Assembly: GCA_977862235.1 (NCBI GenBank)
Contig: OZ374557.1
Span: 3,348,001 to 3,412,000, forward strand
Reading direction: 5' to 3'
DNA length: 64,000 nucleotides
Source: Dudresnaya verticillata
Lineage: Eukaryota
Below the pieces are notes generated by a model that worked only from the letters and a program-made list of their open reading frames with translations, did not search any database and was not told the DNA's origin. Of this stretch, positions 6,118 through 30,400 are shown one piece after another (position 1 is the first letter of the stretch; every line of letters starts with the position of its first letter). The position numbers and the translations under genes were made by a program.

Positions 6118-6122
6118 TCTTT

Positions 6123-6265: not shown

Positions 6266-7770
6266 ATGCAGAACGAAGAACAGGCAGACCCTCCCGTTAC
6301 GGAACCTAAAGCGGGTGACACTAGCCCCGCTGCGCGCAGTCTGCGCAGTGAAGGAGGTAAAATCCGTTCCGGAGTGGAGAACCCAGAAGACATCCTAAAG
6401 GGTGCTGCTGGTAAAGCTCCCCGCTCCCGTGTCGGATCAGACGCCTCGAAGAAGGCAGCTCCGCAACCCCAGCCGGAATCCCATCGGGTCCACTGGGTCC
6501 TGTCGGAGGTCGTTCCTAGGGTGTTAGAGCATCTCCGATTGGAAGTACAACCTGGAATGGTAAAAGAGGTGGGGATATCCCTCTCGGAAACTGTTCCGTC
6601 TTTGGTTAATTCCTATCTGGAGCAGCACCTTCCTCGAATAGTGCAAGCTTTGATCCTACAGGAAAAGGTGGCCGCCGAGCTCGAGAGCCAGATTGCTCCC
6701 GGCATGGCAAGGCCTCCCGCTACGGAAGCTTTCACTGAGCAACCACCGTTACGGAATGAATTCCCGGTCGAGGGAAGAACGCAGCAGCCGCAACCACCCC
6801 CCGTTATGGGATTGCAGCCGGGTACAGTACCCTCTGGGCCACTGCCACCGGCTCCCGTAACGGATTCTCAACATCAACACGCCCCTACGGGACCAACACC
6901 CACTCAGCCACCGTTACGGTATTCTCCTGGACACGTACATGTGCCTACGCCAGGGCGCTATCAGCAAGAGCGCTATACCGTTCCGGTTCGATCAGGTGCA
7001 GGCAGCGACCATCTCAGCGATGCGTCCAGCTCACCCCATCCGAGTCGGAGGACCGGTCGAGGTCGGCATAAACGAGATGCCCGACACTCCCGCTCTGACC
7101 CTCCCCGTCGGTCGCATATGGGCGACCACACCCAGCGACGACGCCACCAATCCGGTATGGAATCCAATGAGAGCAGCTCAGAGGATAGCCAACACCGCCG
7201 CCGCAAGAGGAGAAACAGAAGATCGCGGAAACGCGAAAAAAGGCATGACTCCTCTACCTCTACGGATTCGGACTCAGAGAGTTCTTCCGTAACGGGTAGA
7301 GAGAATAGGCACCGGGCCAGAAAACACGGTGCCAAATCCGGAAAGGTGAAGGTAATCCGGCCACTACATGACAAGTTTGTCAAGGCGCTGGACTACCGCA
7401 CCTACCGATTGGATACGAGGAGTAAGACACACGGCTCTAAGTTCTCACAAAACATGAGCCGTATACGGAAGAAACTCGACGTCCAGATGTCGTCCCATAC
7501 ATTCGATGGGACGGACCCTATTACCGTCTTGGGATTTCTCGCTAAGTTCCGTGACGGTTGTAACATCAACGGCATCGCCGAAGGGGTTGCCGTCTGATGC
7601 TTCCAGTTTTTCCTTAAAGGACAGGCCGAAGCCCTTCTACAGGCTAGGCTTGCTGGAGACACCATGGTGATTGACGTGGAGCAGGTCGAGATGCTCCGCA
7701 CATATTCCGAGGTGGTGAACTTTTTATTGAGAACCTACGCTACGGATGAAGTGATTGCTGAAGCCTTTCC
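6266..7770 (+). pseudogene. gag: Ty3/gypsy gag, with an in-frame stop and 3' truncation
   Basis: Directly after the PBS; LDYRTYRL and FDGTDPITVLGFLAKF align with family F gag; stop at 7597; joined to RNase H near 7770. Confidence 0.85.
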
Positions 7771-10087
7771 ACTTATATTGGCTCTACCCCGTCACGGATA
7801 TAAATATACGTTGGACACTGACGCATGTGACCATCAAGTCGGCTGTGTCCTTCTGCAGGAACAACCGAATGGCGATCACCTCCCTATTGGATACTGGAGC
7901 CGAAGCCTCACCGATGCGGAGAAAAATTATACGACAACCGAAAAGGAATGCTTACCCGTGGTCTGGAGCATGTTAACACTCCGACCCTACCTTTACGGGG
8001 ACAAGTTTATTCTCCGAACGGATCACGATGCCCTGCGGTGGATCCTGAACCTCGCAGACTCATCTGGCTGCCTAGCCAGGTGGAGGCTCCGCCTATCGGA
8101 ATTTGAATTTGAGGTGCAATACCGTCCTGGAATTAAGCATCAACTCGCCGATGGGATGTCGCGACTCCGAACGGATGGCGGTGACGATAGACCTTTGGAT
8201 GAAGAGATACCCTGCTTTATTGCCGAAAATACCGTCGACGGATTATATGAACATGGAGTCTATTTAACCGATTGGGCCACATCACGAGAAACCGCTACGG
8301 AACATAACGTAATATGCGCCGTGGAGCCCGCCAGTGGGAGTGCATCCGCCTCCCCCGACAAGCCCGACGCAATACCGTCACGGTTTACTGTAATCCAAGA
8401 ATCCGACGTTATGGATGAGACAATTACCAGGGAGGCGTTCCTCGAAGCGCAAGCCAGAGACCCTTTCTGCCGTCTCAAAGCCGATACGGTACGCTCCCCT
8501 GGATCACAGTTTGACTATGACCGTAACGGATTCTTGGTACGCAAGTCCCAATTGGATGGTGCTCTGCAGAAGGTGGTGCCAAGCGAACTCCGTGGACGGG
8601 TATCGTATTTATCCCACTACACCCTGATGTCGGGTCACCCAGGTGGAATTAAGATGTATTATACACTCCGACAGGATTATTATTGGCCTCATATGGCCAA
8701 CGATGTATTTGAATCCGTTCGGACATGTCGCTCCTGCGTGAAGACAAAGGGAACCCGCTTTCGGAATCAAAGGTTTATGAAACTTTTCCCCGCTAGCGGA
8801 CCTTTGGAGTTTGTTGCTATCGACATTCTCGGGCCACTTCGGAAGACAAAACGGGGTTATGTCTACGTTTTGGTAATAACCGATCGGTTCTCTAAATTGA
8901 CGCGCTGTATCCCGTTACGGACAACAACAGCCGTTGTGGTGGCTAACGCCTTTCTGGACTTTTGGGTGTATGCGTATGGCGCACCCCAATTTGTCCTAAC
9001 CGATAACAGACCGCATTTTACTGCTAAGTTCTTTGATGCAGTGTGTTCCTTACTCGGAGTCTGGCATCTACTTACCGCTGCCTACCATCCGCAGACAAAT
9101 GGGCAACCTGAGCGATTTAATAAGACAATCACCCAGCGTTTGCGCTATTACGTTGAGGATCATCACTTCGATTGGGATTTGTACCTGCAACCGTTGACGT
9201 ATGCGTACAACATGAAGGTACACCGTATTACGGAAACAACGCCATTTGATTTGGTGCTGACACGCCACCCATCGGACATTGTTGTACGAGGGGCTCCTGT
9301 CGAGCATCAAGAAACCGTTACGAAAGGGCGTATGACCCCGGTGTTACAGAAGCGGAGCACCATGCGCCGTTTACGGTATGCGCTCCAGACAGCGCGCACT
9401 AAGCAGACGGTGGCTCAACAAAAAGCCAAGGCACTGTTTGACCGTAAGGTGCTCTTTAGGCCCATAATCCGTAGCGAAGATCAAGTCGATGTCGACCGGC
9501 CGCCCCATAAGTTGCGGCCTGCCGAACGCCGTGAGCGGGACCGATTGGAAGGCAAACCGGATGATGTGGGCGAGGTGGCTCAGGAAATGAAGAAACTTCT
9601 TCCGCGAGCCACGGGGCCTTATGAAGTGGAATCCGCAACGGAACATGTCGTTACAATCCGCAAGGAAGGGGTATTGATCCCAGTAAGTATCGATCGCATC
9701 ACGAAAGTTCCGATCAGAGTTGCGGTTCAGCCGGCACCCTTGACAGTGCCGCCTGTCACGCCATCAACCGTTTACGGAGAAGTAGTGCCACATCCAGAAG
9801 GTACTACAGTAGCGCCTACACCGTCAGCGGGCATTACACCCTCCGTAGCGGAACCCTTACAAGCCGATACGGAATATGTGGTCGACAAGATTGTCGGTCA
9901 CCGCGACAAACCTACTGGGATGACATACAAAGTTCGCTGGTATGGTTACCCTCCGGATCAGGACACTTTTGAGCCCGCGGAGGAGTTGCCGCAGAATTTC
10001 ATCTACCGGTATTGGAAGCAAAAGAAAAAGACATCCGCTAAGGGTAAGCCACGGCGACGTGCTAACTCAGCACGTCACTCACCGTAA
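7771..10087 (+). pseudogene. pol: Partial pol: RNase H, integrase, chromodomain (PR and RT missing)
   Basis: LDTDAC and YTTTEKECL (RNase H); H-H-C-C and D-D-E (AIDIL, LTDN, PERFN); GPY motif; chromodomain YVVDKIVGH...KVRWYGY. Confidence 0.93.
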
Positions 10088-10255
10088 CGGACGATTGAAA
10101 TGCTAGTGTGTGAATCGTACGATGTTTATCGCAAGCTAAGGTCGAGGCATATTTGAAACCGTTAAGGAGATCGTCGACCTGTAACTCTAAGAGTCACGAC
10201 GACGTCGCTTTGGAGCAGGGACAGCGGTATCTTCCTCGTTGCTCCCCTGACCCGT

Positions 10256-13028
10256 TCACAAGCCGGGTTCCCCACTCGGATCCGATCGGAATACGCGTTG
10301 CGTATTGTCTCCCAAGACGCGAATCGCACTATCCATGCGCCGACGCTGACGACGGACCACTGCGCGGAGATGAATTACCTGTTCCATCAGCCCCTCTGCT
10401 AGGGTTAGCACTTCCTGAACGGATCCTGGCAATGGGCAGCGCTGCGTACGGCAAATGCCCCGTAGCACCTGTAACCGACCTTCCGTAGCGGCTAGATGAG
10501 CCGGAACCGTAACGGGGGATCCTCATCTTCTTGAAACTCTACCTTCGGGGCGATAGACGGCTTATCCCTAACCCCGGCTTCGATTGAATGCTCCGTTGAG
10601 GAAACCACCAATACGGATGGTCCCGACTCGGGTGAAGGTAAGTCCTTCCGCAACGGTGGATTCGTATCCTTCTTTGGCGAGGCGATATCGCTTTTCCGTA
10701 ACGGTTCAGGACTTGACACGGGGACCGAGGGCTTGTCTCCAGTTTCCCCAACACTTTGGCGCTTTGGACCCACTTCCGATACGGTGATCGGTGCCTCACT
10801 CACCGCTGGTGTGGGAGTGGGCGCCAACAGCGGAGCATTTGGCGGGAGCGGTTCAGCGGCGGCAGGCATTTGCGTCGCAGGAGACAGTGCCGCCGGCACA
10901 GTATCCGGCGCCACTTCCGAAACGGTCTGCTCCTTTGAGGATCCCTTCTTGGATGGTGCCGCAGGCTTGGGCACCGCCATAGTCGGCGCAACCACGCCCA
11001 TGGGCGTTGGAGCCTTATCCGATACGGGAGTAGTGGTCTCACGACCCACATGACGTGGGCGTCGCGACCACCGGAAGGATTGGAGCGGGTGTCTTCTCGC
11101 TACCCGCTGCCATTGATGCGACGGGCATGACCTCCTCCTGTTCTTCCAAGAAGGGGTCAGCCTCTTGCTGTCTCACCGTAACGGAACCGCGCGGGTCGAT
11201 TGTACGCGAACGCCCCGCTGTTTCTTGACAGCTTCCCCAATCTTCAGCCTCGTCCAAACCGTCACGGTACGCATCCCTTGGTGCTTAGCGAGGCGCATTA
11301 CCCCCATGGGCCTGCACCTCTAAGGCCAACCATTCCGGCCGCGGGTCTTCTCGATGAAGGAAATATGGCTCTCCCACTCCAGGTCTAAGCGGGGGCACCG
11401 ATAGGACACGTTCCTCATCCCAACTATACCCCAAGAAGCCCGGAGTGCGTTGCCAATCCTGCTCTCCGTGTACGGATAAAAGACGCTCAACCCGATGGAG
11501 CGGGTACGCCGACCCCGTCACCAAATCGGCTACACCACTTGGCGGATTAGAGCAATCACCGTCACGGGAAGTTGAAAGATACGGCCACAGTCCCCTCCGG
11601 GTAGGTCAGCATCATCACGCGGGAAGCAGCGCCAGTCGGATAACTTGGTATTGCACCGCACCCCGTAGTAGGCAACTTGGAGCCACGAAAATAGCACCAG
11701 CATTGCCCACTCCGATCGGAAGATGCGCCAAAGCACATCGAGTTGATCTTGGATAGGGGACGCTCTCCATTCGGGTGCTCGTGATTCCACCCCCGCTCCG
11801 CAAGCAGGTCCGCAGAGAAGTACGCCGCCACAGAAGGCGTAGGCACGGATAACCAACGCGTTACCTCGTATTTATCCCACCACGACGGAGCTGTGAGATA
11901 GAGCTCACGTCGCATCCGATACGGAAGGTGGAAGAACTCCTTGGTATTCCACGTGTGCAAGATGGGTGCCCCCACGTGCATTCCGTCTCGGTAACGCGTC
12001 CGCAATCAGTGTTCCGTCGCCGCGTCGTCTTTCCATCCGTCGGCATAGCGGAACCAATACACCAACTGGTCATACGGAGGGTCAAACCAGATAAACTGCA
12101 CCCCGATCGGTGCACCCCGTAGACAGAATGCCTTCGCCAACAAACGGCTCACCTTCGCGGTGTACCCAACTTCCCCGTGGCAACGGTACCACAACAAATC
12201 CGAAACGGTAGTGGTGCGCTCTTGGCAGTAGCTGTGCACCCATCGGCTTTGCCACACAAACGCCTGCCGGTTCGGTACGAAACCAATTCGCTGGTTTGCC
12301 TTGAAGGTCTGCTCCGAAACGGCTTGGTATCGTCGCGCTTCCAAAACGGTTGGGTAACCCTCGATGAAGTGTGACACTGTCATCGGTGTTGTCACCTTCG
12401 CCCGTTTCGCATCGGATCTCACCGGGCGCCCCGCGCGATGGTCAAAGTGGTTCCCCGGCCAATATCCGCCCGGGGCAGGACCCTCACCGCTACGGGTACG
12501 CTCCATTGGCATCCAAGAGCCGGTCGTCGGCGTCATGCTCCGCACTGGCACTCGCGACCGTTTCGGAATACTGCCTGACGTATATGGGCTTGCACCCAGG
12601 TTCCGCATCGGGGTTGAGACTGGGGTCGATGGCGTCCGTAACGGGATCGCGGGTAGGTCCGCCAAGTTGAGCTCCTCCCCACCACGTCGGATCTCCTCGT
12701 CGTCATCCTTGGCCACATCTTCTCCGCGACGGTGTGTCGCTACATTCCATGACGGGGTGCTCCTTGTGGCTGAGCCGGCAGCAAACCGATTCGGATCGTA
12801 GACAGACCAGCCGCGGCCCGCCGATGGTGCCTGTGACGGTTCCGCTGCGGTAACACCCACGCGACAACTCGTCGTGCGTGGTGCCACATCCGCCGAGGCC
12901 GAGGCCTGCGCTTGCGTCGAAGCATCCGTAACGGTAGGCGCACCCGGCGCTTTCGTCGTCGAGCTCGCGCGGGTACGCCGTGTCGGTTGAAAGGGCGACG
13001 GGGAGCGCTTGCTCTTCTCCCCTGACAT
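10256..13028 (-). pseudogene. Antisense accessory ORF of family A (conserved domain ~11285-12480 plus P/A/S-rich tail), disrupted
   Basis: Fragments 12006-13028, 11562-12005, 11530-11856, 11285-11524 and tail ORFs are collinear with the copy at 17111; ATG in ACCATG context. Confidence 0.85.
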
Positions 13029-13162
13029 GGTGGGAGAAGCGCGCACGAAGGAGGAGGAAACGTTGAGGACGATACCCGTATCGGTTGTGTGTGGGTGTGG
13101 AAGCAAAGGTAATCCGTGACGGTGGGCGCCCGAGGACGTGGCGCCATTTAAGGAGGGGGGTC

Positions 13163-13837
13163 TGTGGTGAAGTGAGCCGTGGCGCGCATGCGGCACGCCG
13201 ACGGCGAGCCAACCGTAACGGGTGATGTGGCAATACGCCACGCTGATGATCTGGCAACGTGTAACCGTGTCGGATGTTGTGCGCATTGCTGTACGCTGGT
13301 ACGCATTGTTGTACAGTAGTGGAGCGCACCAACCGGAGCGGAGTATTTGTAGTATTTATTCTTTATTTTTAGTGAGTATCTGTACAGTATGTAGAGTAGT
13401 GCGCCAGCCAATGAGAATGCTGCGCATGTCCGTATCGGAGATTGGGACCAGCAGGGCCGATTCCACCATAGGACCAGACCACTAGGGTCTGGCCCCCACG
13501 GACCGGACCGCTCGGTGCCACCCTGACTTGTATATCAGGGCGGCACCGCAGCGGCTCCTAAGGTAAACGGGTAAGCAACCTTAGCCCAATCCTTTACGGG
13601 TTTCCCCGCGCCGAGCCCGTTGCGGTCTACCACCACCACCGTTACGGAGTCCGTCCCGGCACTTGTACCACCCCCTTGTCTGTTGCTTCCCAATATCCGT
13701 CTCGGTTAGCCGCTCGCTGTTCTCCCGCCTCGGTGCGAACTGTTCTACCACCCCGTGGAGGTAGTGTTGCTCTCGTCCTGTGAGGAAAGTCAGGCCAGCT
13801 GTCCGTCTCGGAGTTCGTGGGTTTTCACTACACCACA
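13163..13837 (+). repeat. 3' LTR, family A (675 bp), preceded by PPT
   Basis: PPT AAGGAGGGGGG at 13150-13160; TG...CA ends. Confidence 0.95.
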
Positions 13838-16301
13838 ACCTCACAGACAGCCGCATTTGCAAAAATCCGACATGGGGGTCCTACCACACATAAAGGAGCA
13901 AACACTCTTGGAGATTGTTGCTCTCACCGTAGCGGAATAAGTTTCCCCAACGGTCTGCTCGAACGCGCAGTCGATTACGCTCCCATATCCACAATGGACA
14001 ATTCGTACTCCGATCGGATGACGGTACTTCACACCGCTACCTCCTGACGGAAGTTGTTCCGACTTGGGTGGCGAGAAGTTGGGGGGCTAGTGTGGCAGTA
14101 TGGACGCTGTCAGCAGAAGGGCTTACAGAAGCGCACTTCTCTTCGCGGGACAGACTGTCCCTTAATCAGGACAGCTGTCCTTTCATCGCTATACACATGG
14201 ATGACATGTGGAATGCACGTGTGTACACGTGGACTTACAGCTGTACACGTGGACTTACAGCTATACACGTGGCATACACGTGGCCTTGTAATGACGCCAG
14301 TTGGATACCTCGTATTGGTTGATTTATGACGCGCCGCTGCGCTCCTACTCACGAACGGGGAGCACCTCTGCGCTCAGGGTATCGACAGTGCAGCCGGGAC
14401 CTCGGCTTGCGCACCGGCGCATTCGCCACCAAGTCCCCTAACTGGAATGCATTCCCACTTTTGACTCGTGCTGACTGTACTAACCTACGTAACTATAATC
14501 ATAGACTAACTCAGACCCCCTTTCGGGCTGATAGACTTCTCGGCTGTCAAGCCCTACTTATGGGCGCCGGAATAGCCGGCGCCCTCAGAATAAACACTCA
14601 GCGGAGTTGTTCGGGCAGTTGCCACCTTTCGCTCGGACACTCCGCGCCTGCAGGGGTCGCCCAGTACAGGCCCGGACATCGTACGACAAGTACTCTACGA
14701 AATACCGGGTCGCAACCTCTATACTTTCCCTCAGTCGGTCGCGCCGAGTCTTTACCGTGCTTCCGCACCCCCCTTTCGGGTCATCAGGGCCCGCCTCTTT
14801 CCAAGCCTCTACCAAACCTCCTTCGAGCTACCACCAATTAGCGTGTGATATCGGACAGCTGTCTTTCTTTGTTCTTTGCTGTTTCTGGCCGGTGCCATAC
14901 TGCTACAGCTAGGTACGCCACAAACCGTCGCAGGCGGCGTGTTTCAGGAATCCGTAGCGGTTACAGGCGAATACCTTCACCCCTGCCCTTATGAGACACA
15001 CCACGAACCTCTCCCTCTTGAGATGAACCCGACCCGCGACGGTGTTAATATATTATTTTCAATATAATAATATACTGAATATATTAATATTAACATCAAT
15101 ATTAATATATACCCGGGACTCTGAGAAGAATAATGAGACGGAGGAATTTTCCTGTACCGTCGCGGAAGGGGCCGTTCTTGGCCCAAACGTGCTGGGCCGG
15201 CCGCCCGTCGCAAGAAAAAGGCGTGCCCCTCCCAGAATGGCTACGACAAACACCGTAACGGCTCTGCCGAGGTGTCCAGAGCGCGTTCCGTGACGGAAGA
15301 GTGCCGCGGAAGCGGTGAAACCTCGGCGGATTATGCCGACTGCGATACTGCGGCAAAGCGAGAGTGCCGTTTCGGGAAATAGGTCGCGTTCCCGGTAGGA
15401 TACGCGACTCACGCTGACAAAAGTCGTGACGGAGCGGTTTCCCCCAGTATGAGCGACAAAATCCCGTAACGGTAGCAGACGTCGAAAAGAGTCAGTTCCC
15501 GTAACTGTGTCGCCAAAACGCGGAGAGTTGCGATTGCCCCAAGCTACAGTGGCTTGTCTTCCGTTACGGTTAGAGGCGCGCCTTGCCTGCGCGTCGCAGA
15601 GGTCTTCCCTTAGCGGAGCTCTTGCGTTTTTGTTTCCAATAGCGGTAGATAAAGTTCTGCGGCAATTCCTCGCCGGGCTCGTAGGTGTCCTGATCCGGAG
15701 GGTAGCCGTACAAGCGGACTTTGTACGTCATCCCAGTCGGTTCGTCACGGTGACCGACAATCTTGTTGATCACAAATTCCGTATCGGCTTGCAGTGGTTC
15801 CGTCGCGGAGGGAGTAGCACCTTCTGATTGAGGGACTACTGTAGTACCTTCTGTACTTGGCACTACTTCTCCGTAAACGGTTGATGGCGTGACAGGCGGC
15901 ACTATCAAGGGTGCCGGCTGAACCGCAACTCCGATCGGAACCTTCGTGATGCGATCGATACTTACTGGGATCAATACCCCTTCCTTGCGGATTGTAACGA
16001 CATGTTCCGTTGTGGATTCCACTTCATAAGGCCCCGTGGCTCTCGGAAGGAGTTTCTTCATTTCTTGAGCCACCCCGCCCACATCATCCGGTTTGCCTTC
16101 CAATCGGTCCCGCTCACGGCGTTCGGCAGGCCGCAAGTTATGGGGCGGCCGGTCGACATAGACTTGATCTCCGCTACGGATTATGGGCCTAAAGCGCACC
16201 TTACAGTCAAACAGTGCCTTGGCCTTTTGTTGAGCCACCGTCTGCTTAGTGCGCGCTGTCTGGAGCGCATACCGTAAACGGCGCATGGTGCTCCGCTTCT
16301 G
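13838..16301 (-). mobile_element. Internal fragment of a family A-related element: integrase C-terminus/chromodomain (15570-16301) and a different 3' region
   Basis: ORF 15570..16322 is near-identical to the pol C-terminus at ~9350-10087; downstream sequence does not visibly match that of the other copies. Confidence 0.85.
14091..14907 (+). repeat. Solo LTR, family E (817 bp)
   Basis: TGTGGCAGTATGG...CCATACTGCTACA ends; TSD GCTAG on both sides. Confidence 0.92.
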
Positions 16302-16976
16302 TGTGGTGGAGTGAAAACCCACGAACTCCGAGACGGACAGCTGGCCTGACTTTCCTTAACGGACGAGAGCAACACTACCTCCACGGGGTGGTAGAACAGT
16401 TCGCACCGAGACGGGAGAACAGCGAGCGGCTAACCGAGACGGATATTGGGAAGCAACAGACAAGGGGGTGGTACAAGTGCCGGGACGGACTCCGTAACGG
16501 TGGTGGTGGTAGACCGCAACGGGCTCGGCGCGGGGAAAACCGTAAAGGATTGGGATAAGGTTGCTTACCCGTTTACCTTAGGAGCCGCTGCGGTGCCGCC
16601 CTGATATACAAGTCAGGTTGGCACCGAGCGGTCCGGTCCGTGGGGGCCAGACCCTAGTGGTCTGGTCCTATGGTGGAATCGGCCCTGCTGGTCCCAATCT
16701 CCGACACGGACATGCGCAGCATTCTCATTGGCTGGCGCACTACTCTACATACTGTACAGATACTCACTAAAAATAAAGAATAAATACTACAAATACTCCG
16801 CTCCGGTTGGTGCGCTCCACTACTGTACAACAATGCGTACCAGCGTACAGCAATGCGCACAACATCCGACACGGTTACACGTTGCCAGATCATCAGCGTG
16901 GCGTATTGCCACATCACCCGTTACGGTTGGCTCGCCGTCGGCGTGTCGCGTGCGCGCCACGGCTCACTTCACCACA
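16302..16976 (-). repeat. 3' LTR, family A (675 bp)
   Basis: Reverse complement of the 13163 LTR; adjacent CCCCCCTCCTT is the PPT. Confidence 0.95.
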
Positions 16977-17110
16977 GACCCCCCTCCTTAAATGGCGCCA
17001 CGTCCTCGGGCGCCCACCGTCACGGATTACCTTTGCTTCCACACCCACACACAACCGATACGGGTATCGTCCTCAACGTTTCCTCCTCCTTCGTACGCGC
17101 TTCTCCCACC

Positions 17111-19810
17111 ATGTCAGGGGAGAAGAGCAAGCGCTCCCCGTCGCCCTTTCAACAGACACGGCGTTCCCGCGCGGCTTCCACGACTAGGGCTCAGGGCGCG
17201 CTAACCGTTACGGATGCTTCGACTCAAGCGCCGGCTTCTTTCTCGGCGGCAGCGACGTACCCGCAACGGGCGGTCGTACGAGCGGGGCCGTAACGGAACC
17301 TTCACCGGCTCCATCAGCGAGCCGAGGGTGGTCGGTCTATGATCCGAATCGGTTTGCTGCGAGCGCAGCCACAAGGACCGTGCTACCAGGGAGTGCAGCG
17401 ACCCACCGTGACGGAGAGGCGCCAATCAAGGACCGCGATGATGCGTTCCGTCGTGGTGCCGAGGAGCTCAGGTTGGCAGACCTAACGGCCATTCCGTTAC
17501 GGGCACCATCGACACCGGTATCGACGCCGAGTCGTAGGATGGTGTCTAGTACACATTCTTCCTCAAGTACACCGAGACGGATGCGTGGGCCCCCGCAAAT
17601 CAATCCACCTGCACCGGGGCCTTGGTGTCCGGCGGTGCATACCCGCGACGGAGAGGGCCCTGCCCCGAGTGGTTATTGGCCGGGGCACCACTTTGATCAT
17701 CGCGCGGGGCGCCCGGCTAGAACCGATGCGGAGAGGGCAAAGATTAAGCCGCCGATGACGGTGGACCTCTTCATTGAGAAATATCCAACCCTCTTGGAAA
17801 AAGAAGGTACAAGGCCGTCATGGCGCAACCCTTCAAGGCGAATCAACACATTGGCGTTGTTCCGAATCGGAGAGAATTTGTATGGCAAAGCCGATGGGTT
17901 CATGGCTATTGCCAAGCGCGGACCTCTACCGTTTCGGATTTGTTGTGGTATCGCTGCCATGGGGAGGTAGGATATACCGCAAAGGTGAGTCACCTGTTGG
18001 CCAAAGGTTTCCGTCTGCAGGGTGCGCCGGTCGGCGTGCAATTCATTTGCTTCGACCGCCCCTATGACCAGTCGGTATATTGGTTCCGCTATTCCAACGG
18101 GTGGAAGGACGATGCCGCAACGGGACACCGTTTGCGAACTCGATCCCGTGACGGAATGCGAGTTGGCTCACCAATCCTGCATACGTGGAACACTAAGGAG
18201 TTCTTCCACCTTCCGTATCGGGTGCGTCGTGAATTGTACCTTACAGCTCCGTCATGGTGGGAGCGTTATGAGGTGACCCGTTGGTTATCTGTCCCTACGC
18301 CTTCCGTCGTGGCATACTTCTCGGCGGACCTACTCACCGAACGGGAGTGGAACCACAAGCATCCGAACGGAGAGCGTCCCCCGAATCAAGATCAACTCGA
18401 TGTACTGTGGCGCATCTTCCGATCGGAATGGGCAATGCTGGTGCTCTTCTCGTGGCTCCAGGTGGCCTATTACGGAGTACGGTATAACACCAAGTTAGCC
18501 GACTGGCGATGCTTCCCACGGGATGAGGATGACCTGCCCGGAGGAGACTGTGGCCGTATTTTTCAACTTCCCGTAACGGTGATCGCCCTAATTCGCCAAG
18601 TCGGCGTACCCGATTTGGTGACGGGGTCGGCGTACCCTCTCCATCGGCTGGAGCGTCTTTTATCCGTACACGGAGAGCAGGATTGGCAACGCACTCCGGA
18701 CTTCTTGGGGTATGGTTGGGACGAAGACCGTGTCCTATCGGTGCCCCTGCTTAGGCCCGGAGTGGGTGAGCCATATTTCCTTCATCGAGAAGATCCGCGT
18801 CCGGAATGGCTGGCCTTAGAAGAGCAGGCCCATCGTGGCTATGCTTCTCGCTAAGCACCAAGGGATGCGTACCGTGATGGTTTGGACGGGGCTGAAGATT
18901 GGGGGAGCTGTCAGGAGGCAGCGGGGCGTACGCGTACAATCGACCCGCGCGATTCCGTTACGGTGAGACAGCAAGAGGCTGACCCCTTCTTGGAAGAATA
19001 GGTGGAGGTCATGGCCGTGGCCTCAATGGCAGCGGGTAGCGAGAAGACACCCGCTTCAATCCTTCCGGTGGTCGCGACACCCACGTCGCGCGATGTGGAT
19101 CGTGAGACTACTACTCCCGTATCGGATAAGGCCCCAACGCCCATGGGCGTGGTTGCGCCGACTATGGCGGTGCCCAAGCCTACGGCGCCATCCAAGAAGG
19201 GAGCCTCAAAGGAGCAGACCGTTTCGGAAGTGGCGCCGGATACTGTGCCGGCGGCACTGTCTCCTGCGACGCAAATGCCTGCCGCCGCTGAACCGCTCCC
19301 GCCAAGTGCTCCGCTGTTGGCGCCCACTCCCACACCAGCGGTGAGTGAGGCACCGATCACCGTATCGGAAGTGGGTCCAAAGCGCCAAAGTGTTGGGGAA
19401 ACTGGATACAAGCCCTCGGTCCCCGTGTCAAGTCCTGAACCGTTACGGAAAAGCGATATCGCCTCGCCAAAGAAGGATACGAATCCACCGTTGCGGAAGG
19501 ACGTACCTTCACCCGAGTCGGGACCATCCGTATTGGTGGTTTCCTCAACGGAGCATTCAATCGAAGCTGGGGCTAGGGATAAGCCGTCGATCGCCCCGAA
19601 GGTAGAGCTACGGAAAGTGGGTTACAGGTGCTACGGGGCATTTGTCGTACGCAGCGCTTCCCATTGCCAGGATCCGTTCAGGAAGTGCTAACCTTAGCGG
19701 AGGGGCTGATGGAACAGGTAATTCATCTCCGCGCAGTGGTCCGTCGTCAGCTTCGGCGCATGGATAGTGCGATTCGCGTCTTGGGACACAATACGCAGCG
19801 CGTATTCTGA
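17111..19810 (+). pseudogene. Antisense accessory ORF of family A, second copy (best-preserved domain 17820-18854)
   Basis: MSGEKSKRSPSPF start; 344-aa open stretch; stop at 17293, frameshift near 17800, low-complexity tail. Confidence 0.87.
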
Positions 19811-20012
19811 TCGGATTCGAGTGGGGAACCCGGCTTGCGAACGGGTCAGGGGAGCAACGAGGAAGATACAGTTGCCCCTGCCCCGAAGCGGCGTCGACGT
19901 AACTCTTAGAGTTACAGTGCGACGATCTCCTTAACGGTTTCCATTATGCCTCGATCTTAGCTTGCGATAAACATTGTGTGTTCTGCTCACACCCCAGCAC
20001 TCCAACTGTCCG

Positions 20013-23000
20013 TTACGGTGAGTGACGTGTTGGATTAGCACGTCGCCGTGGCTTACCCTTAGCGGATGTCTTTTTCTTTTGCTTCCAATATCGGTAGATG
20101 AAGTTCTGCGGTAACTCCTCCGCGGGCTCAAAAGTGTCCTGCTCCGGAGGGTATCCATACCAGCGGACTTTGTATGTCATCCCAGTAGGTTCGTCGCGGT
20201 GACCAACAATCTTGTCAATCACATATTCCGTATCGGCTTGCAGTTATTCCGTCCCGGAGGGGGTAGTACCTTCAGAAGGAGGTACTACTGTAGTACCTTC
20301 TGGATGTGGCACTACTTCTCCGTAAACGGTTGATGGCGTGACAGGCGGCACTGTCAAGGGTGCCGGCTGAACCGCAACTCCGATCGGAACCTTCGTGATG
20401 CGATCGATACTTACGGGAATCAATACCACTTCTTTTCGGATTGTAACAACATGTTCCGTTGCGGATTCCACTTCATAAGGCCCCGTGGCTCTCGGAAGGA
20501 GTTTCTTCACTTCCTGAGCCACCTCGCCCACATCATCCGGTTTGCCTTCCAATCGGTCCCGCTCACGGCGTTCGGCAGGCCGCAACTTATGGGGCGGCCG
20601 GTCGACATCGACTTGATCTCCGCTACGGATTATGGGCCTAAAGCGCAGCTTACAGTCAAACAGTGCCTTGGCTTTTTGTTGAACCACCGTCTGCTTAGTG
20701 CGCGCTGTCTGGAGCGCATACCTTAAACGGCGCACGGTGCTCCGCTTCTGTAACACCGGGGTCATACGCCCTTTCGCCAAATCAAATGGCGTTGTTTCCA
20801 TAATACGGTGTACCTGCATGTTGTACGCATATGTCAACGGTTGCAGGTACAGATCACAATCGGAGTGATGATCCTCAACGTAATGGCGCAAACGCTGAGC
20901 GATTGTCTTATTAAATCGCTCAGCTTGCCCATTTGTCTGCGGATGGTAGGCAGCGGTGAGCAGGTGCCTGACTCCGAGTAAGGAACACACCGCGTCGAAG
21001 AACTTAGCAGTAAACTGCGGTCCGTTATCGGTTAGGACAAATTGGGGTGCGCCGTAGGCGTACACCCAAAAGTCCAGGAAGGCGTTAGCCACCACAACGG
21101 CTGTTGTTGTCCGTAACGGAATACAGCGCGTCAATTTAGAGAACCGATCGGTTATTACCAAAACGTAGACATAACCCCGTTTTGTCTTCGGAAGTGGCCC
21201 GAGAATGTCGATAGCGACAAACTCCAAAGGTCCGCTAGCGGGGAAAAGTTTCACAAACCTTTGATTCCGAAAGCGGGTTCCCTTTGTCTTCACGCAGGAG
21301 CGACACGTCCGAACGGATTCAAATACATCGTTGGCCATATGAGGCCAATAATAATCCTGTCGGAGTGTATAATACATCTTAATTCCACCTGGGTGACCCG
21401 ACATCAGGGTGTAGTGGGATAAATACGATACCCGTCCACGGAGTTCGCTTGGCACCACCTTCTGTAGAGCACCATCCAATTGGGACTTGCGTACCAAGAA
21501 TCCGTTACGGTCATAGTCAAACTGTGATCCAGGGGAGCGTACCGTATCGGCTTTGAGACGACAGAAAGGGTCTCTGGCTTGCGCTTCGAGGAACTCCTCC
21601 CCGGTAATTGTCTCATCCTTAACGTCGGATTCTTGGATTACAGTAAACCGTGACGGTATTGCGTCGGGCTTGTCGGGGGAGGCGGATGTACTCCCACTGG
21701 CGGGCTCCACGGCGCATATTAGGTTATTTTCCGTAGCGGTTTCTCGTGATGTGGCCCAATCGGTTAAATAGACTCCATGCTCATATAATCCGTCGACGGT
21801 ATTTTCGGCGATAAAGCAGGGTATCTCTTCATCCAAAGGTCTATCGTCACCACCATCCGTTCGGAGTCGCGACATCCCATCGGCGAGTTGATGCTTAATT
21901 CCAGGACGGTATTGCACCTCAAATTCAAATTCCGATAGGCGGAGCCTCCACCTGGATAGGCGGCCAGATGAGTCTGCGAGGTTCAGGATCCACCGCAGGG
22001 CATCGTGATCCGTTCGGAGAATAAACTTGTCACCGTAAAGGTAGGGTCGGAGTGTTAACATGATCCAGACTACGGCTAAGCATTCCTTTTCGGTTGTCGT
22101 ATAATTTTTCTCCGCATCGGTGAGGCTTCGGCTCCAGTATCCAATAGGGAGGTGATCGCCATTCGGTTGTTCCTGCAGAAGGACACAGCCGACTTGATGG
22201 TCACATGCATCAGTGTCCAACGTATATTTATATCCGTGACGGGGTAGAGCCAATATAGTTGGAGAGATAAGGCGTCTCTTCAGTTCCTCGAAGGCTTCAT
22301 ATTCCGTATCGGGTAATATTCCAAACTCAAAGGGTGAGCCCTTGCCGGTTTTCTTATTCAGTGGTGCTGAAATCAGAGCGAAGTTGGGTACAAAGCGACG
22401 ATACACGTTGCACATTCCCAAGAAGGATCGCAATTCCGTTTGGTTAGTCGGCGGCTTCGCGACCTTAACGGATATTCCGATTATCCACTTCTAATTTTCC
22501 GGGACGGATAACATGCCCCAGGTATTGTACAGAAGAAGTCACAATTTGACAATTTCAACGTTACCCCAGCGGATCGTAAAAGTGTAAGGACTTCCTTCAG
22601 GTGGTGGAAATGTTCCGTAACGGTTTTTGAGTAGACAATTACATCGTCTAGGTAGACGAGGGCAAATTGCCATTTAACCGTAGAAAGGATTATATCCACT
22701 GCCCGTTGGAAGGTTGCCGGTGCATTTTTCAATCCGAATGGCATTCTCCGAAAACGGTATAAGCCAAAATGGCTAGTGAAGGTAGTTTTGTCCCTTTCCT
22801 CTTCCGGAATCTCGACTTGCCAATATCCGCTATTGCAATCAAGGGTGGTAAATACAGTAGCTTCCCCAAGGGAATCTATGCACTCATCCATCCTGGGCAA
22901 GGGATATGAGTCCCTAACCGTTACGGAATTGAGCCTTCTATAGTCAACACAGAACCGCATGGTGCCGTCCTTTTTTGGAACGAAAACCACGGGGCTGGCC

Positions 23001-23015
23001 CACTCCGATGAGGCT
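20013..23015 (-). pseudogene. pol: pol: RT, RNase H, integrase, chromodomain (frameshift and stop)
   Basis: CVDYRRLN, MPFGLKNAPATFQ, YLDD, RNase H and DDE motifs; frameshift near 22520; in-frame deletion after TPFDL relative to the copy at 7771. Confidence 0.95.
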
Positions 23016-23897
23016 TGTCGTGCAAACGTCGTATCGAAGACGGAGAACGCCTCCGGGCCGTTCGGGAGCCCGGTGGGTAGCCGCTAGTAGCGAACTGGGT
23101 AGAGCGGGTAGAACACGCCTAGGGCGGACTGTAAACACCCAGGGCGAGCGGACGAGGGGGCAAAGAAACCCAAAAGGAAACACGTTAGCAACGAGTAGGA
23201 ACGTGGAAACACGGATGGGTAGACGCTTATGCTTCCGGGCAGCGGTAGGGTGCGCGCTGTCGCGGAGGGGAAGTCTAGACTCAAACCGGCTTGCCGGGGC
23301 TTTACTGGTACGGCCTAGACGAGGTACCTAAGTAACACTATGGGGCCGCGGCGCGACGGCTGCATGACGTGGTGCGCGGGAACCCGGGACGCGTGTCGTC
23401 CCGAGGTACGTCTGACAATTGCTGTCGCCGTGCAGCCGCGTTGCTGACAAGCCCACTCGCCGCAGTCGTGCGCGTCCCCCACGTTGTTGCACGTGTGCGT
23501 AGGCGTTCGAACCGCACATAGGCGCGTAGTGTGATGTTGGATCTGGATACGCGATCCGGATCCTTGCCTGCCGCCTGCCTTACACCGTAGAAACTCTCAT
23601 AGCTTTACACCCCCCTGCTCCCGCGCGCTGGCCTTCCTTACAGCGCGCGACACGTGTTTGTCCAGCACACACGTGTGCCGGTGAGGCCGATCGCGATCCA
23701 TCGATCGTGCTCGGTCTGATGCACGTGGCCCCACTGTGCCCGCGCGCCAGTCAGGGTTGGCGGTTACAGTACGTGGGGCGGTGTGTTCGGGCGTCACTTG
23801 CCGCAAACGGGGTCAACACGCCGTTGGCGACGGTGGCCCGTCATAGACGGTATACACGCTCAAAGCGACTGTGCAGTCAGTGGCTCAATGCACCACA
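23016..23897 (-). repeat. 3' LTR, family F
   Basis: Direct repeat of 34874-35756; adjacent to PPT. Confidence 0.96.
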
Positions 23898-24279
23898 CCA
23901 CCCCCTTCTTAGACGCGAACACGCCTTCGGCTAGCCGCTCCTTATTGTTGACCGCCAACCGCTCACAGCGTTGCATCGTTCGACTGCCGTGCTTGCGTCG
24001 GGCCGTTTCTCACTCGCGTTTGGCGCACTGTATCCGCCGAGGGCGACCATCATCAACCTGTTTCGCCGCCACTGCCGGCAAAAGGCAAAAACCCCCGTCG
24101 GCGACGTTGTTCGGCGGAGAGCTGCCTCGCCTGAAGCGTGTCAATCGCGTGCGAAGTGCGCCGAACGTCCTAGACGTGAGCATCGAGTCCTCGTCGCTGA
24201 CGTGTGGTTGTGATCGTCTACGACGGTTGTGTTGACATCGCCCGTGGCGTGTGTGGAGTGTTACCGTCACTTTGACGTC

Positions 24280-26373
24280 ATGCCGCAGTACGATGGGGCG
24301 CGAGTCGCGCCCCCTTCGTCGATACCGGTGTACCCGTCTTTGTACGACTTTGTCGGAAAGAACCCCCGCGATCACGCGTACCTTTTCGCCCGAGCGCCTT
24401 GGTTCGATCCGGCCGCGCTTGGCAATGAGGCGCTCATCACTCACTACGCCATTGGCGGTATGCTACCAGGGGAACTCCCCCTGGCCGTCGTCTATTCCGC
24501 AGAGTGGAAGACCCGTTGCGCAATCCCCAAAACGTGGGTACGGGTGCACCCCGGCCAGTCGCTCGATGATGCGTATGCGCGATTCGTCTCCGACGTGCAT
24601 GGCCGCTTCTTGCGCTTCCCGGGGACCGACCTGGTCCCCCTATCGTTGGAATTGGACGCGGCCCATTTCCAAACGTACGGCGAGGCCGCTTATGGCTATC
24701 GAATCGCGGAGCTTCCGTTGACTCATATTCCTCCGTCTCTGGACGCACGCGTCCGAGACGATACTTTGGTGATGGGCGTACGCTTGCGAGCGGAGTTCCG
24801 TTACTTGCGTTGGGCCGGTACCTTCTATTGGGAAAGGTGCGTTCGGTGGGAGTGTGAGTCCCGGCGCCGCAAAGGTGTTCTGGTGCCGTACCAATACACA
24901 CAAATCGATCGCTTAGAGCGGGCCAAAGCACCGAATTGTTTCGTCAAACTGCCGCCGCAGTGGCGTGAGGTCGAGGTCTGCGAGAGCTTTGCTGTCGAGT
25001 TGCCTCCCGTCGTGACGTACTTGGGTTCGGAGCTCATGATAAACGCGTATTCGCGGTGGTGGGTCGTGTTCTACACGGAGTGGGCAGCCAACATCGCCTA
25101 CGCGTGGCTCTGGGAGGTGTATGATACCTTTCGGCTGTACCACCTCCCGCCGCGTGTTACTGCGTTCTTCAACGATTTGGATCTGACCGAGACACTCGGC
25201 GGGCAACGGAATCTCCGGGAGTTCTGGGACCTACGCCATGTGGCGGATGAGGTCGACTGGAACAACCCAGCCGTCGTTCCGTTGAGAAATAACCGCCGTA
25301 AGGCGAATCGTCCGCGCTTCGTGATGAGTAGGAACCACAACGCCTGCGGCGATTGGGTCTGGTATAATCCGTGGACCAAACGCCGCACGACGGAGAATAT
25401 CGCAGAACGCCACCGCAAGACGGACCGGTACGTCCCGACGGATTATCTCCGCGGCGCTTTGCCGAGTTGCGACGCTGACGGTGACGTTCCGCCGCACTTG
25501 AGCGCGCTTCTGGCCGAGGAAGATGCTCTTCACGCCTCGGGCGAACTTGCGAACACGTCTGGGACGGGCGTCGCGACCCCTATGACGGTTGACCCGGTGG
25601 CTGTTCCCGCTGAATCGCCCGTGGCGTCGGTTTCCTTGGCACCGCCTGGGCCCGTAGCCACGTCCGCGACGGTTGTTCCCATTCCTGAGGACACTCACGT
25701 CGCTGACGCCGATGGTGATGCCATTATGGCCGGTCCCGTACAAGCGCCGCCGGCGCCTCAGGCAACGATGGTATCGCAACTTCACGTCGGTGATGGGGCA
25801 GCGCCGTCCGCGGCCATGCCGGCCTAGACCTCCGCGCAGCGTGAAGTCGTTCTTTCGCTATTGCGCGCCGCTGGCATGGAGCCTCAGGACTCGAGCGGTT
25901 CGCCGTCAGACTGGTGGGCTCGCTGTTTAGCGACACTGCCGACTGCGGTGGGGGCGGGTGTGCAGACGTTATCGGCTTCTCCGGGTCTGTCGCTTTCCGG
26001 TGCTACCGCAGAGGAAACTCCGTCTGCGACGATCCCTCAACGCAGCGGGTCGCCGACGGCGAAGATAACTCCCATTGCGTCGGTGACGTCGGGCGCGCCC
26101 ATAGCGCCCACGGCGATTATTGCACAAGGAACGCCGGTGGCGGTTGCAGTGGCACAGGCGCCCGGGGCGATGGGGACAGACGGACCGATAGCGCCTAAGG
26201 CGGTTGCCTTGCGTTCGTCGCCGGTGGCGGCTAAGGGTGCGCTACTGCCGAAGTCGGCTGCGACTTCGTCGACGCCGAAGGCGGTTGAGGAGTCTGGCTC
26301 TCCGCTTCGGGCGTCCGTGATGGGGGCAACAGGGGCAGCTGCGGTGGCTGGGCCTTCGCGGCTCGTCCCGTAG
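24280..26373 (+). CDS. Antisense accessory ORF of family F (open to 25827; in-frame A/P-rich tail after one stop)
   Basis: ORF 24229..25827 is Trp-rich; LPPVVTYLGSEL...WWVVFYTEWA...LYHLPPRV aligns by eye with the family A domain. Confidence 0.8.
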
Positions 26374-27492
26374 CCGGCCGACCCGGCCCCAACGTCTCCG
26401 ACGAATGATGATGAGGGCTATGAGGCGGCGTTGCGCGAGTCGGCCGAGGACGGCGCTCCAGACAGGCCAGCGACGCCGCCAACGGTGGGGGAAGATTGAT
26501 ATCCCTCCTCCCTCAGTGTGGATGGGCGCGCGGGTGCGCTACGCGAGTCCGGTGGCCTTCCATAGGGAGTTCCCTGGGCGGGGAGAGTTAGGCGTCTTCG
26601 GACGGGTAGCAACATCGTCGTAGCGACGTGATTACGGTGGGCTGAGCAAGCGTCGACTTGACGTATGTACCCAGTAAACGTCGTCCGTTACTACCGTAGC
26701 TGCTCCACGAGCGCCATAATTTCGTTACCTTAACCGCTCGTGAGGTGACGGTGACCCGTCGATGACGCGAATAGAGTAGCGCGAACATCGGCGTGGGCTC
26801 CCCTTGGCGTTTAGCTGATCATCACGGGGGTCGTGCTCCCCTCCCTTTTGTTTTTTAATAGAGTCCCCGTCGTCTTTGTCGTAGGGATCCCGCGCGATTA
26901 GCACACCGTCGCGACGTTGTCGGAGAAGCCTCTTACCGGTCTGGGCGTCACTCGCCAGGGTCGCCGCTGGCAGCGATAGGGGTTGCCCAATTCCTTGGAG
27001 CCGCGTAACGCGTCGTGCACGCAATTCGTGATCGTGCCTACGGTGAACCTCGTCGCTGACGTCATCCCCAGATTCCCTTGGTCGTGGTTGTGCGGTCCCT
27101 TCGCGACGTGGTCGTTGGCTTGTCCTAGAGGGGCAGGCGTTGAGGTGGGATACGAAGCGCGATTGTCGGTCGTTCCCCCTTGGTGACGATAGTCTGTACG
27201 AGAGGCCGTTCGGGACGGTGTCGCCTTCCCTATACGGCTCCGTAGGCACCGCACCATAGTCGCGTACGGTGAGCCACTTGGCAGTACGGGGAGCTCTGCC
27301 TGCTGGTGGCGGAGTGGATTGTGTTTGGCGCCGTGCGTGCCCAGTACCGCGGTAGGTTCGAGTGGCGTGAGCGGTGTCAGCCACCTTGGCTGACAGTTGC
27401 GCCATAGGGTGCACCTATGAGGACCCATCCCGCGTGTGCTTCCGCCTTGGGCGTTTTGGGGCGCAAGCCCTTTCGTGGTCGGTCGTGACGTT

Positions 27493-30400
27493 TTACCCTA
27501 AACAAGCGTCGTCGATATTCGGTGGAGGGTCCGTTCGCTTTTGGCGGTGGTACCGCACGATATGCGAACGGGGCAGGTTCGACACCGGTTCCCACGTGTT
27601 CGCTGTGGCGGCGTATCCGAACCATTTCACGAAGTAGAGGATCTCTCCGTCATCTGCGAACGCGTGCTTCTCGATCCGATCGATGACGTACTCTCCTTCG
27701 CTGCCAGCGACTGGTTGCTTACGTTTCGCCTTGAGCGGGTCCTTCGGCTGCTTTGGTCCTTCGCCGTGGGCGCCCAACAGTCCTGCGAAGCGTACTTGAC
27801 GCAAAGATCGCCGTGGGCGAGCAGCGTCCCGTATAGCCGAGCGTACGCCTTCGGTGGGAGATGCGCTCGCTTCTGGCGTTTGCGCTGTCGACATGGTCGG
27901 GTTTTGCCCTTCGCTCCTTAGCGTAGCCTTGGTTACGTCGGTGGCGCTCTTAGTCGGCCCGACCGGCGGCGTATCCGGGGTATGCCTGGCGACGCCGAGT
28001 CGGGTGCGAACGCCTTGCGGTTGGTCGTCGTCTGAGACGGACTGCGATGACTCACTACCGGGCCCAGCCGCGAACGGAGCTAACTCGGCCAAGCCGCGAA
28101 CGGACGCCTGTGGCGAACGGTCGCCATGCATCTGTTGATCATTCCCATCCGGGGATGTCGTTGCAGCAGCGTTCGTCTCGTCGTTGACGACTCCTCGGTT
28201 TGGTGGCGCCCCATTAGACGGTGGACCCGCAGTCGTGGGGGTGTTGATTGCGACGTGACCCGGAGGAGTCGGCGCCCAAACCACGCGGTCCCTTGACAAG
28301 CGTTCGCGTTCGTTACGTCCTTTGTCGACGGTAATCGTACCGTCTTCGACGCTGATCACTCGGTAGGGCCCATCCGCCACTGGTGCCAACTTGTGATTGC
28401 GCTCCGCTTGATCCCTCGAGCTGCCTCTGGCGAAATACTCCTTACGTACAAATACGAAGTCTCCTGCGACAATCTTCTCGGCACACTTCCGTAGTCGGGC
28501 GTCGAAGTTTCGCTTATAGCGGGTTTGCGTTTGCGCCAAGGTCGCTGTTGCGGTACTCATCAATGCGGTCAGCCATGCCCTCCACTTCGTGTAGTATTGG
28601 CCGCCGGTGGGGACGCTTTCCAGCGACGGCTCCGCTTGGAGCGACAATGGGAGTGGGAGTCGGGAGAGTACCAGCTCGAACGGCGATAACTGTGTGGACG
28701 AGTGGATCTGCGTGTTATAACCGAAAGTCAACGCATCCGTGAACATATCCCAGTCGCGAGGGTGGTGTGCCATGTAGTGACGCAATGATGCGAGTATCGT
28801 CCGGTTAAACCGTTCCATCTGTCCATTACACTGGGGGTGATACGTCGTGGTGAAGAGATTCTCGACACCCAGTAGGCGACAGACGTCCTGGAATAGTTTG
28901 GCGACAAACTGTGGCCCATTATCTGATAGTAAGCGCTTCGGCGGACCATACACGAATACCCAATGTCGCACGAACGCTTTTGAGATTTCCAGAGCCGTAA
29001 CTGTACGCAAGGGTACCGTCCTGACCAGCTTCGAAAAGCGGTCGACGATTACAAGGAGAAACGTATTCCGCCTTTTGGTACATATGAGTTCTCCGAGTAT
29101 ATCGACACAGTCGAACTCAAGCGGCTCGGTAGCCGGGAACAACTTCATCGCCTTCACGTTCTTTCGTAACAGGACGCGGTTCTTCGCGCAGGTAACGCAA
29201 TTTCGAACCATTGCGTAACAATCTACCGTCATGGACGGCCAATAGAATTCGCGTCGGAGCGTCTGGTACAACTTCCTTCCTCCGGGGTGTGCCGCTAATT
29301 TAGCGTAATGCCTCAGGTGCAGGAGGCGTGCGCGTAACGCGAATGGTATAACGACTTGCGACCGGGCCTCCACGGTTCGTATGAGTCGCCCTTGTTCGCC
29401 CATCGCGAATGGTATCGACTTTCCGTCATCGAGACGCTTCCGAATTCCAGTACAGTACTCGTCGTTGGCTTGGGCATGGATCAGTTCTTCGTGCGTCACC
29501 TGACGTAGGAGCACCTCCTCCGGTGAAGGCGCGTTGGCAACGAGCAGCCGGTCGAATTCTTCGAACTCCCTTTCCACGAAGTCGACTTCGCCCTCGGTGC
29601 TGGTCACACCGTCGGTTGACGTCTGATGTTCGTCCTCGACGTGTTCCCCATGGTAGCACGGAACATCGTCGTCGATCGGTTCAACCGTCTCGCCATTCGT
29701 CTGTAGTCGTGACAGGGCGTCAGCCTGGGTATTCAAGTAACCATTCTTGTACTTAACGACGAAGTCGAAATCCGAAAGACGCAGTCGCCAGCTCATCAAA
29801 CGTCCCGAGGGGTCACTGATTTCCATCAGCCACCTCAGAGACGAGTGGTCCGTATGTACGGTGAACGACTCCATCTGGAGATACGGACGCAACGTTGTAA
29901 CGGACCACACTACTGCCAAGCACTCCTTCTCGGAGACGGAATAATTACGCTCTGGAGCGGTGAGTGAACGCGACCAGAAACCGAGCGGCTTCCGCTCCCC
30001 ATTGGGTTGCGTCTGGAAGAGAGCGCATCCGACTTGATATTCGCTGGCGTCACAATCGACGGAGTATTGTAAGCCTGGCTGTGGTAGCGCCAATACCGGC
30101 GGACTGGTTACGGCCTTGACGAGAGTGTCGAACGCGGGCGCTTTCCCTTCGTCAAAGGACGGTAGTGTGAACTCTTGCTCCTTTCGGAGCAACGTATTGA
30201 GGGGCGCAGCGACATGCGCGTAACGCGACACAAATCGTCTATAGACGTTGCACAACCCGAGGAAGCTGCGTAGCTCCTTCTGGTCCCGCGGGTGCTTGGC
30301 TTCGCGTAATGCGGCGGTCACCGTTCGGTCGACTTCCAATCTTCCTGGACGTATCACGTGTCCCAAGTAATTGACAGTCGGGGTGAAGAAGTCACACCTG

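Follow-up and report, generated by a model that had tools for sequence, protein, structure and literature searches.

The antisense accessory ORFs found in LTR retrotransposons have been puzzling for a long time, and they have been studied almost only in the Retand/Tat elements of flowering plants. The window considered here (the whole 64-kb stretch of DNA that was analysed) raises the same question in another setting. Its nested LTR retrotransposons, which lie among long unbroken host ORFs (two kinases and a Myb protein), carry reading frames on the strand opposite pol; are these frames genes, and what might their product do? The initial annotation interpreted five of them as copies of an old accessory gene for an unrecognised domain.

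Elements and their antisense reading frames

Self-comparison and inspection distinguished four element types in the window, termed A, F, G and I. Element F is full length (23015..35756, minus strand), with LTRs at 35756-34873 and 23897-23015 that are 98.4% alike, and with gag, protease, RT, RNase H, integrase and chromodomain between them. It has the complete set of TG...CA LTRs, PBS, PPT (23910-23901) and 5-bp target duplication. Its pol matched the Pfam families RVP (weakly, E 0.005), RVT_1, RT_RNaseH, rve and Chromo, and that of A matched RNase H, rve and Chromo by Pfam and RT by tblastn (Chromo E-values 2e-11 for A and 6e-10 for F). A and F are Ty3/gypsy LTR retrotransposons with a chromodomain integrase, in the order protease-RT-RNase H-integrase-chromodomain, and their pol proteins share 64% identity in RT and 44% in RNase H-integrase.

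The window has two copies of element A, both damaged, along with a third pol end and with LTRs that are solo or partial. A copy 2 (A2; 5538..13837, plus strand) comprises a 5' LTR (5538-6117), PBS, gag, a deleted pol whose remainder (RNase H-integrase-chromodomain) reaches 10087, a PPT at 13150 and a 3' LTR (13163-13837). A copy 1 (A1) lies on the minus strand, with a 3' LTR at 16301..16976 that probably contains an antisense promoter, a polypurine tract at 16979..16989 and a frameshifted pol (RT, RNase H, integrase and chromodomain) at 20016..23083. This copy is inserted in the integrase end of another A copy (15557-16302), which has no antisense ORF or LTR following it. The remains of G, on the plus strand, are a pol end (chromodomain end only, 47189..47260), a spacer, and a PPT and 3' LTR (50552..51250, the LTR starting at 50565). 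The pol of I lies beyond the window edge, and the element is marked by a PPT (2711-2720) and a likely 3' LTR from 2724 to a putative end at 3316 (2711..3316, plus strand).

An antisense ORF lies between pol and the 3' LTR in both A copies, F, G and I, and in each element it runs from just inside the PPT towards the pol end. All five regions claimed in the initial annotation are present and antisense to pol, with ATGs at 17111 (plus; A1), 13028 (minus; A2), 24280 (plus; F), 50408 (minus; G) and 1422 (minus; I), at distances of 134 (A1), 134 (A2), 382 (F) and 156 nt (G) inside the 3' LTR edge. Their placement just upstream of the PPT and 3' LTR applies to A1, A2, F and G; the ORF of I is separated from its LTR by an inserted A-family solo LTR with a CTCGA duplication (1925..2599, plus strand). 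Further ATGs were observed beside the PPT of G (50549, in frame with the accessory ORF) and of A (16990, on the antisense strand, opening a short overlapping frame).

The description of these regions as five long ORFs needs a qualification, given that a single fully open frame survives in I alone and the other four window copies are broken. The I ORF (115..1422, minus strand) encodes 435 aa and is likely a distant family member. The A1 ORF (17111..19909, plus strand) shifts frame twice, around 17290 and around 17800, is interrupted by stops at positions 18852, about 18998 and about 19810, and ends in a basic PKRRRR stretch. The A2 (10196..13028, minus strand) and G (47680..50408, minus strand) ORFs each contain several frameshifts and stops, and that of F (24280..26373, plus strand) has one in-frame stop at 25825. 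The lengths nonetheless exceed chance in the three regions where this was assessed: the longest stop-free frames (573, 537 and 358 codons) were matched by none of 300 base-shuffles of each region, and the other five frames over the same stretches as the long open frames contain 4-26 stops.

A shared domain under purifying selection

The antisense proteins of A and F are similar by direct comparison (BLASTP E 1e-4), and no significant pairwise similarity was obtained between A and I (E 0.08) or F and I (E 0.07). Related elements were fetched by their pol and not by the ORF because circularity was to be avoided, which yielded 70 metagenome loci (from the best 80 of 588 confirmed stretches) and one locus from a viral collection. 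An iterative profile seeded with A alone was then run against 7878 ORFs from both strands and all six frames of the 71 loci and the window, with reversed decoys. It recruited G, A2, F and antisense ORFs behind pol, with the best decoy at E 0.09. A hold-out profile of 26 locus rows, excluding the window rows and the nearest relative of F (L002), recovered F (E 1.2e-11), A1 (E 3.5e-9) and A2 (E 1.1e-9) against a best decoy of 1.7, its rows having been picked by profiles that contained A and F. The alignment of A with G and the domain shared by A and F, both proposed initially, are thus upheld, G having been recruited by a profile grown from A. The 3' LTR of G is 68% identical to that of A. On sequence similarity, A, G and F are homologous to each other and to the ORFs of many related elements. 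The four lineages originally counted are better described as three, namely A with its sister G, then F, then I.

The family profiles matched the domain in 34 of the 71 loci, always on the strand opposite pol. Among the 27 loci that had an integrase with 2.5 kb or more of sequence beyond it, 22 carried the domain there (21 if the second pol of L013, here counted as a carrier, is used). The five without a match are L005, L011, L019, L064 and L071; some fall within positive clades, and L071 belongs to a remote element. The fetched loci represent in effect about 8-9 families, since many are near-identical copies, and the profiles were partly trained on them. One additional family match was seen on the plus strand of L007, where two 389-bp repeats (412-5786; 86% alike) enclose a family ORF but no pol match, possibly a non-autonomous element with the accessory gene alone. 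Near other gypsy elements in the fetched loci, a helicase-like ORF that is Helitron-like by eye (L019:11765-13678) and a single ORF with integrase followed by RT, a copia-like order (L047:14887-18072), were also noted.

A 25-row profile searched against 1.84 billion cluster representatives (clusters at 50% identity) found 950 clusters at E<=1e-3, 406 at E<=1e-10 and 54 at E<=1e-30. Twenty clusters were looked up; three contained hypothetical proteins of Pyropia vietnamensis, no other species was named, and no fungal names occurred. From this and from the gene style of the window, with its long unbroken host ORFs, the hosts are likely red algae, and some red algal ‘hypothetical proteins’ are likely retrotransposon genes. 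No relative of the ORF was found in the viral contigs and phage records searched, and a word-based search with the A core returned none among 1870 candidates (lengths 196-627 aa).

A profile of the best 150 of the 950 clusters scored F at 218 bits, A at 58+14+23 bits and I at 8.2 bits. The last score was reached by none of 300 shuffles and was aligned at the spaced motif that had been quoted for I; the motifs quoted for A, F and I were all found in the sequence. A further profile scored I at 7.5 bits, a weak match equalled by none of 500 shuffles, and HHalign gave a probability of 3.5% over 172 columns, above all 60 shuffles. I was not recruited by the iterative or hold-out profile searches of the 71 loci and window. 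The proposal that I shares the motif therefore stands in position, where the profiles place it exactly, and weakly in strength, given the non-significant pairwise values; I probably belongs to the family. The separate 844-aa antisense ORF of a sister clade (L011:8209-10740 and L024:10718-12308) belongs to the family very distantly, if at all. Results for the L011 ORF as a member were mixed, with none of 500 shuffles as high in one profile test and 120 of 300 in another.

Between the two A copies, dN/dS in the core was 0.082 (95% bootstrap 0.054-0.118; 345 codons; Nei-Gojobori), and differences fell at the three codon positions in the numbers 29/22/122. For the same copies the low-complexity N-terminus gave 0.33 and RNase H-integrase 0.29; the core and pol values are not strictly comparable, given that dS is 0.07 in pol and 0.82 in the core. 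Nine pairs of related loci gave dN/dS of 0.19-0.54, with eight of nine excluding 1, and synonymous sites were saturated between A and G (pS 0.78, pN 0.31). The core is under purifying selection. The RNase H-integrase of the two A copies (7765-13837 against 22266-16302) is 96.7% alike but dS in the antisense ORF core is about 0.8, so the accessory-gene region was likely swapped by recombination between A subfamilies.

Unrooted trees of ORF and integrase from 28 elements were largely concordant. Thirteen of 14 strong splits in the ORF tree recurred in the integrase tree and eight of 10 in the reverse direction, with the A entry combining integrase and ORF from two different copies. Distances were correlated (Mantel rho 0.47; 0/2000 permutations as high), and ORF divergence was about 2.5 times that of integrase. 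This agreement suggests that the gene has likely been carried with pol since the common ancestor of the families compared. Together with the dN/dS values it bears out the initial view of an old accessory gene under selection.

Could the ORFs nevertheless be by-products of GC-rich sequence or RNA structure, with similarity arising by chance? High GC does produce many spurious ORFs in the fetched loci, four of five window copies are broken and I is weakly linked, but the hold-out profile, dN/dS, the 950 clusters, the 22 of 27 loci, the confident models described below and the shuffle test leave this reading with almost no credence, and for A, G and F it is already refuted by third-position bias and the hold-out profile. 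The antisense ORF is almost certainly a real gene.

Predicted fold and composition

The median length of the long family members is 630 aa (n=49); they combine a hydrophobic core with a tail rich in Pro, Ala, Ser, Gly, Thr and Glu. AlphaFold2 modelled residues 1-407 of the F protein with a pLDDT of 92.4 and a pTM of 0.90 (131 alignment rows), with a pLDDT above 90 for most of residues about 10-395. The folded region of the A protein with its conserved core (17799..18830, plus strand) gave a pLDDT of 79.5 and a pTM of 0.83 (143 alignment rows). Both models are mostly helical, with a long central helix that bears the conserved W...E-W motif, and by eye their helices follow a like order. The protein is predicted to fold as one compact domain of about 350 aa, of which about 230 aa form the core, with a low-complexity tail behind it.

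No match at threshold was found in Pfam, PHROGs, NCBIfam or PDB sequences, and Pfam cut-offs were reached by none of 7 window pieces, 25 cores and 52 full-length members. The best PDB sequence rows, UHRF1 (E 0.4) and AcpS (E 0.3), were dismissed as chance. Foldseek searches against PDB (F and A models) and BFVD (F model) gave no match at E<=0.001. The best VIA-align Z-scores were 2.6 (rmsd 5.4, 129 aligned) and 2.9 (rmsd 5.0, 101 aligned), lower than the 7-8 typical of unmatched models according to the tool's own note, and a further structure comparison gave no match. The structural check proposed in the initial annotation has thus produced confident models without a structural match in PDB or BFVD, and the domain remains unrecognised across Pfam, PHROGs, NCBIfam, PDB and BFVD. 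The predicted fold is without counterpart among the PDB structures and BFVD viral folds searched, an absence that is not proof of a new fold.

In some members a two-helix module of 35 aa or a basic, helical C-terminus is predicted in addition. The module occurs at the C-terminus in 21 of 70 members and may resemble SAP/LEM/HeH; it had no Pfam match at E<=0.3 and no PDB sequence match. A weak match to it follows the stop of F (0/500 shuffles), and its presence in A and G was unsupported in register.

Known systems and candidate roles

Antisense ORFs have been described in plant Retand/Tat elements and fungal Boty, as far as the available text of these sources extends (PMC11963269, PMC7264820, PMC4408406, PMC2774666, bioRxiv 2025.02.11.637652, bioRxiv 2021.04.13.439636). 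The Retand/Tat elements (with TRP28, that is transposase_28, or the plant mobile domain, PMD; maize Grande gene23, rice RIRE2) are likewise Ty3/gypsy, have a long region between pol and the 3' LTR, and retain an antisense ORF of probably regulatory function in most copies, comparable to the 22 of 27 loci here (PMC11963269, PMC7264820, PMC4408406; excerpts). Retand is, however, a non-chromovirus lineage of flowering plants that often contains tandem arrays, whereas the present elements carry a chromodomain and their pol-LTR spacers showed no tandem array of the Retand kind. TRP28 and PMD gave no profile match to the antisense ORFs in the Pfam comparison described above, and neither was listed in the fold search, which covered the solved structures of PDB and the viral folds of BFVD. 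The absence of detected likeness to Retand/Tat proteins, together with the different lineage and host, points to a separate origin of the same layout. Boty/BcGypsy1 brtn (Botrytis, Sclerotinia) belongs to fungal hosts and shares the layout. No report of an antisense ORF in the gypsy elements of red algae turned up in the literature searched; the Chondrus genome paper with its supplement, bioRxiv supplements and Repbase notes might mention one. The layout is already known from Retand, Grande and Boty, and the domain and host lineage appear undescribed. What the present case adds is a large family (950 clusters) in a chromodomain lineage of another host group, for which a high-confidence model, conserved surface candidates and intact natural members in a named Pyropia genome, such as the P. 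vietnamensis proteins GAB0498237.1 and GAB0497122.1, make localisation and partners testable.

The layout is consistent with antisense transcription driven from the 3' LTR. An ATG at 134-382 nt from the LTR edge would fit a separate antisense mRNA, and the 3' LTR may thus drive such a backwards message, with the ATG 130-400 nt inside the element. The antisense gene of the HTLV type is known as HBZ. In HTLV the antisense gene has a 3' LTR promoter (PMC7264820, in part), as is suggested here; HTLV is a retrovirus, no sequence or fold similarity was found, and the domain here is about 350 aa.

The reading we favour, tentatively and at somewhat less than even odds, is that the accessory protein is a nuclear, non-enzymatic regulator that helps the element past host silencing. 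The protein would enter the nucleus and relieve repression by binding either a host factor of chromatin or RNA silencing or the chromatin of the element's own LTR, such that the element would be transcribed despite host silencing. This is preferred by analogy to Grande gene23 and from the basic termini of the A subfamily. The maize Grande antisense gene is described as having its own promoter and a nuclear product (PMC7264820, excerpt). By eye, A1, A2 and two of the closest A homologues (P0202 and P0260) have a basic C-terminal cluster after a likely coiled coil. Against a nuclear regulator, the family-wide tests of nuclear localisation signals and charge were negative. C-terminal basic clusters were not enriched (8/49 members against 10/60 linker windows), which led to rejection of a family-wide nuclear localisation signal. 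A basic DNA-binding core was rejected as well: with a median of +0.4 per 100 aa (n=97) its net charge is about zero, and nothing in this points to a surface that binds DNA.

Should the protein counter silencing, a histone- or RNA-based target is likelier than CpG methylation. Among repeat copies, C-T change rates were 0.025 at CG, 0.028 at CA, 0.018 at CT and 0.009 at CC, with CpG o/e of 1.1-1.3; a CpG-methylation signature was rejected, as there was no CpG excess of C-T changes. Since the repeats show no CpG decay, a protein that opposes histone or RNA silencing is more likely than a VANC-like one directed at DNA methylation. VANC (VANDAL) and the accessory genes of red algal Plavaka are transposon-borne, with chromatin action shown or proposed, and VANC acts on DNA methylation (bioRxiv 2025.02.11.637652, partial text). 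VANDAL and Plavaka are DNA transposons, and no similarity to the present family was found; the repeats here bear no mutational trace of methylation. In the red alga C. merolae, transposable elements are reported as silenced by H3K27me3 (bioRxiv 2025.02.11.637652, partial text). An extension of the anti-silencing reading that we regard as unlikely would give the main chromodomain gypsy clade of red seaweeds a third gene since before its major families split, with an unseen fold and a role as antagonist of Polycomb- or RNA-based silencing.

A late-acting protein comparable to retroviral Rev or Vpr, serving genomic RNA export or packaging, or nuclear entry of the pre-integration complex with the chromodomain integrase, has perhaps one chance in five. 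Such a role would suit the strict co-inheritance with integrase and the basic termini of the A subfamily, and has been suggested for plant antisense ORFs (PMC7264820, excerpt), but linkage alone explains co-inheritance and the core is not basic. Slightly less probable is a self-limiting or exclusion factor, whereby the protein or the antisense RNA dampens its own or competing families as a form of copy-number control. Antisense RNA can silence (PMC7264820, excerpt), and an ORF that diverges faster than integrase is what a family-specific factor might display; an RNA-only role, however, would not yield a dN/dS of 0.08 or a conserved fold, and the antisense mRNA might have no overlap with gag-pol.

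An enzyme of unknown fold, for example one acting on nucleic acid or chromatin marks and captured once by the ancestor of the clade, is of the same low probability as the self-limiting factor. Conservation reaches 70% or more at eleven polar or charged positions, with E232 at 94%, and residues D126, R131, E135, Y138, R195, E232 and E267 (F numbering) are 73-94% conserved; the conserved D, R, E and Y residues could be catalytic. Capture of enzymes by retrotransposons does occur (PMC9289625). No alignment column is invariant, however, several conserved polar or charged residues are replaced in A or F, and no enzyme family or fold was matched.

Pit connections offer a route between the cells of a multicellular thallus. 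A factor that moves particles or RNA through them is nonetheless a very doubtful candidate: the accessory gene sits where env lies in other elements and the named hosts are multicellular, but the orientation is antisense and 47 of 49 long members have no membrane helix. Env-like third ORFs also lie between pol and the 3' LTR, yet they are sense and have membrane helices, whereas the present ORFs are antisense and the hydropathy cut for a membrane helix was passed by 2 of 49 long members only. An env-like identity was rejected on these grounds, and by hydropathy the protein is soluble, with no membrane anchor.

Several minor features of the window were recorded. Harbinger-like DNA transposon pieces lie at 4020-5814 and 38931-39752; they include a DDE_Tnp_4 transposase (4128-4874) and, on the minus strand near 39003-39752, what is likely its partner ORF. 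Positions 38854 and 52604 share a repeat of 154 bp. Two repeat families (601 bp at 93% and 495 bp at 88%; 37708-38810, 46430-47029 and 51453-51946; adjacent at 38308/38317) are probably LTRs or non-autonomous elements. The region 58965-63622, with long overlapping ORFs, strong strand skew and a 471-aa ORF without Pfam match (62207-63622), is probably another transposon. A (TG)42 microsatellite (41691-41776) lies upstream of the Myb ORF; a tandem duplication of 249 bp is found at 57081-57582.

Finally, the palindrome TACWGTA was seen 30 times against 4.2 expected (0/100 shuffles), a count inflated by copies in repeated LTRs. Sites were located at 3939-3983, 13312, 13383, 16750, 16821, 23765, 35624, 38053, 46774, 43653-44894, 50772 and 50944, and cluster in LTRs including those of A, F and G, in the sequence upstream of the 4128 transposase, and within the intergenic stretch at 43.6-44.9 kb. 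The palindrome is possibly a two-way promoter element of the LTRs or a promoter element of the host.
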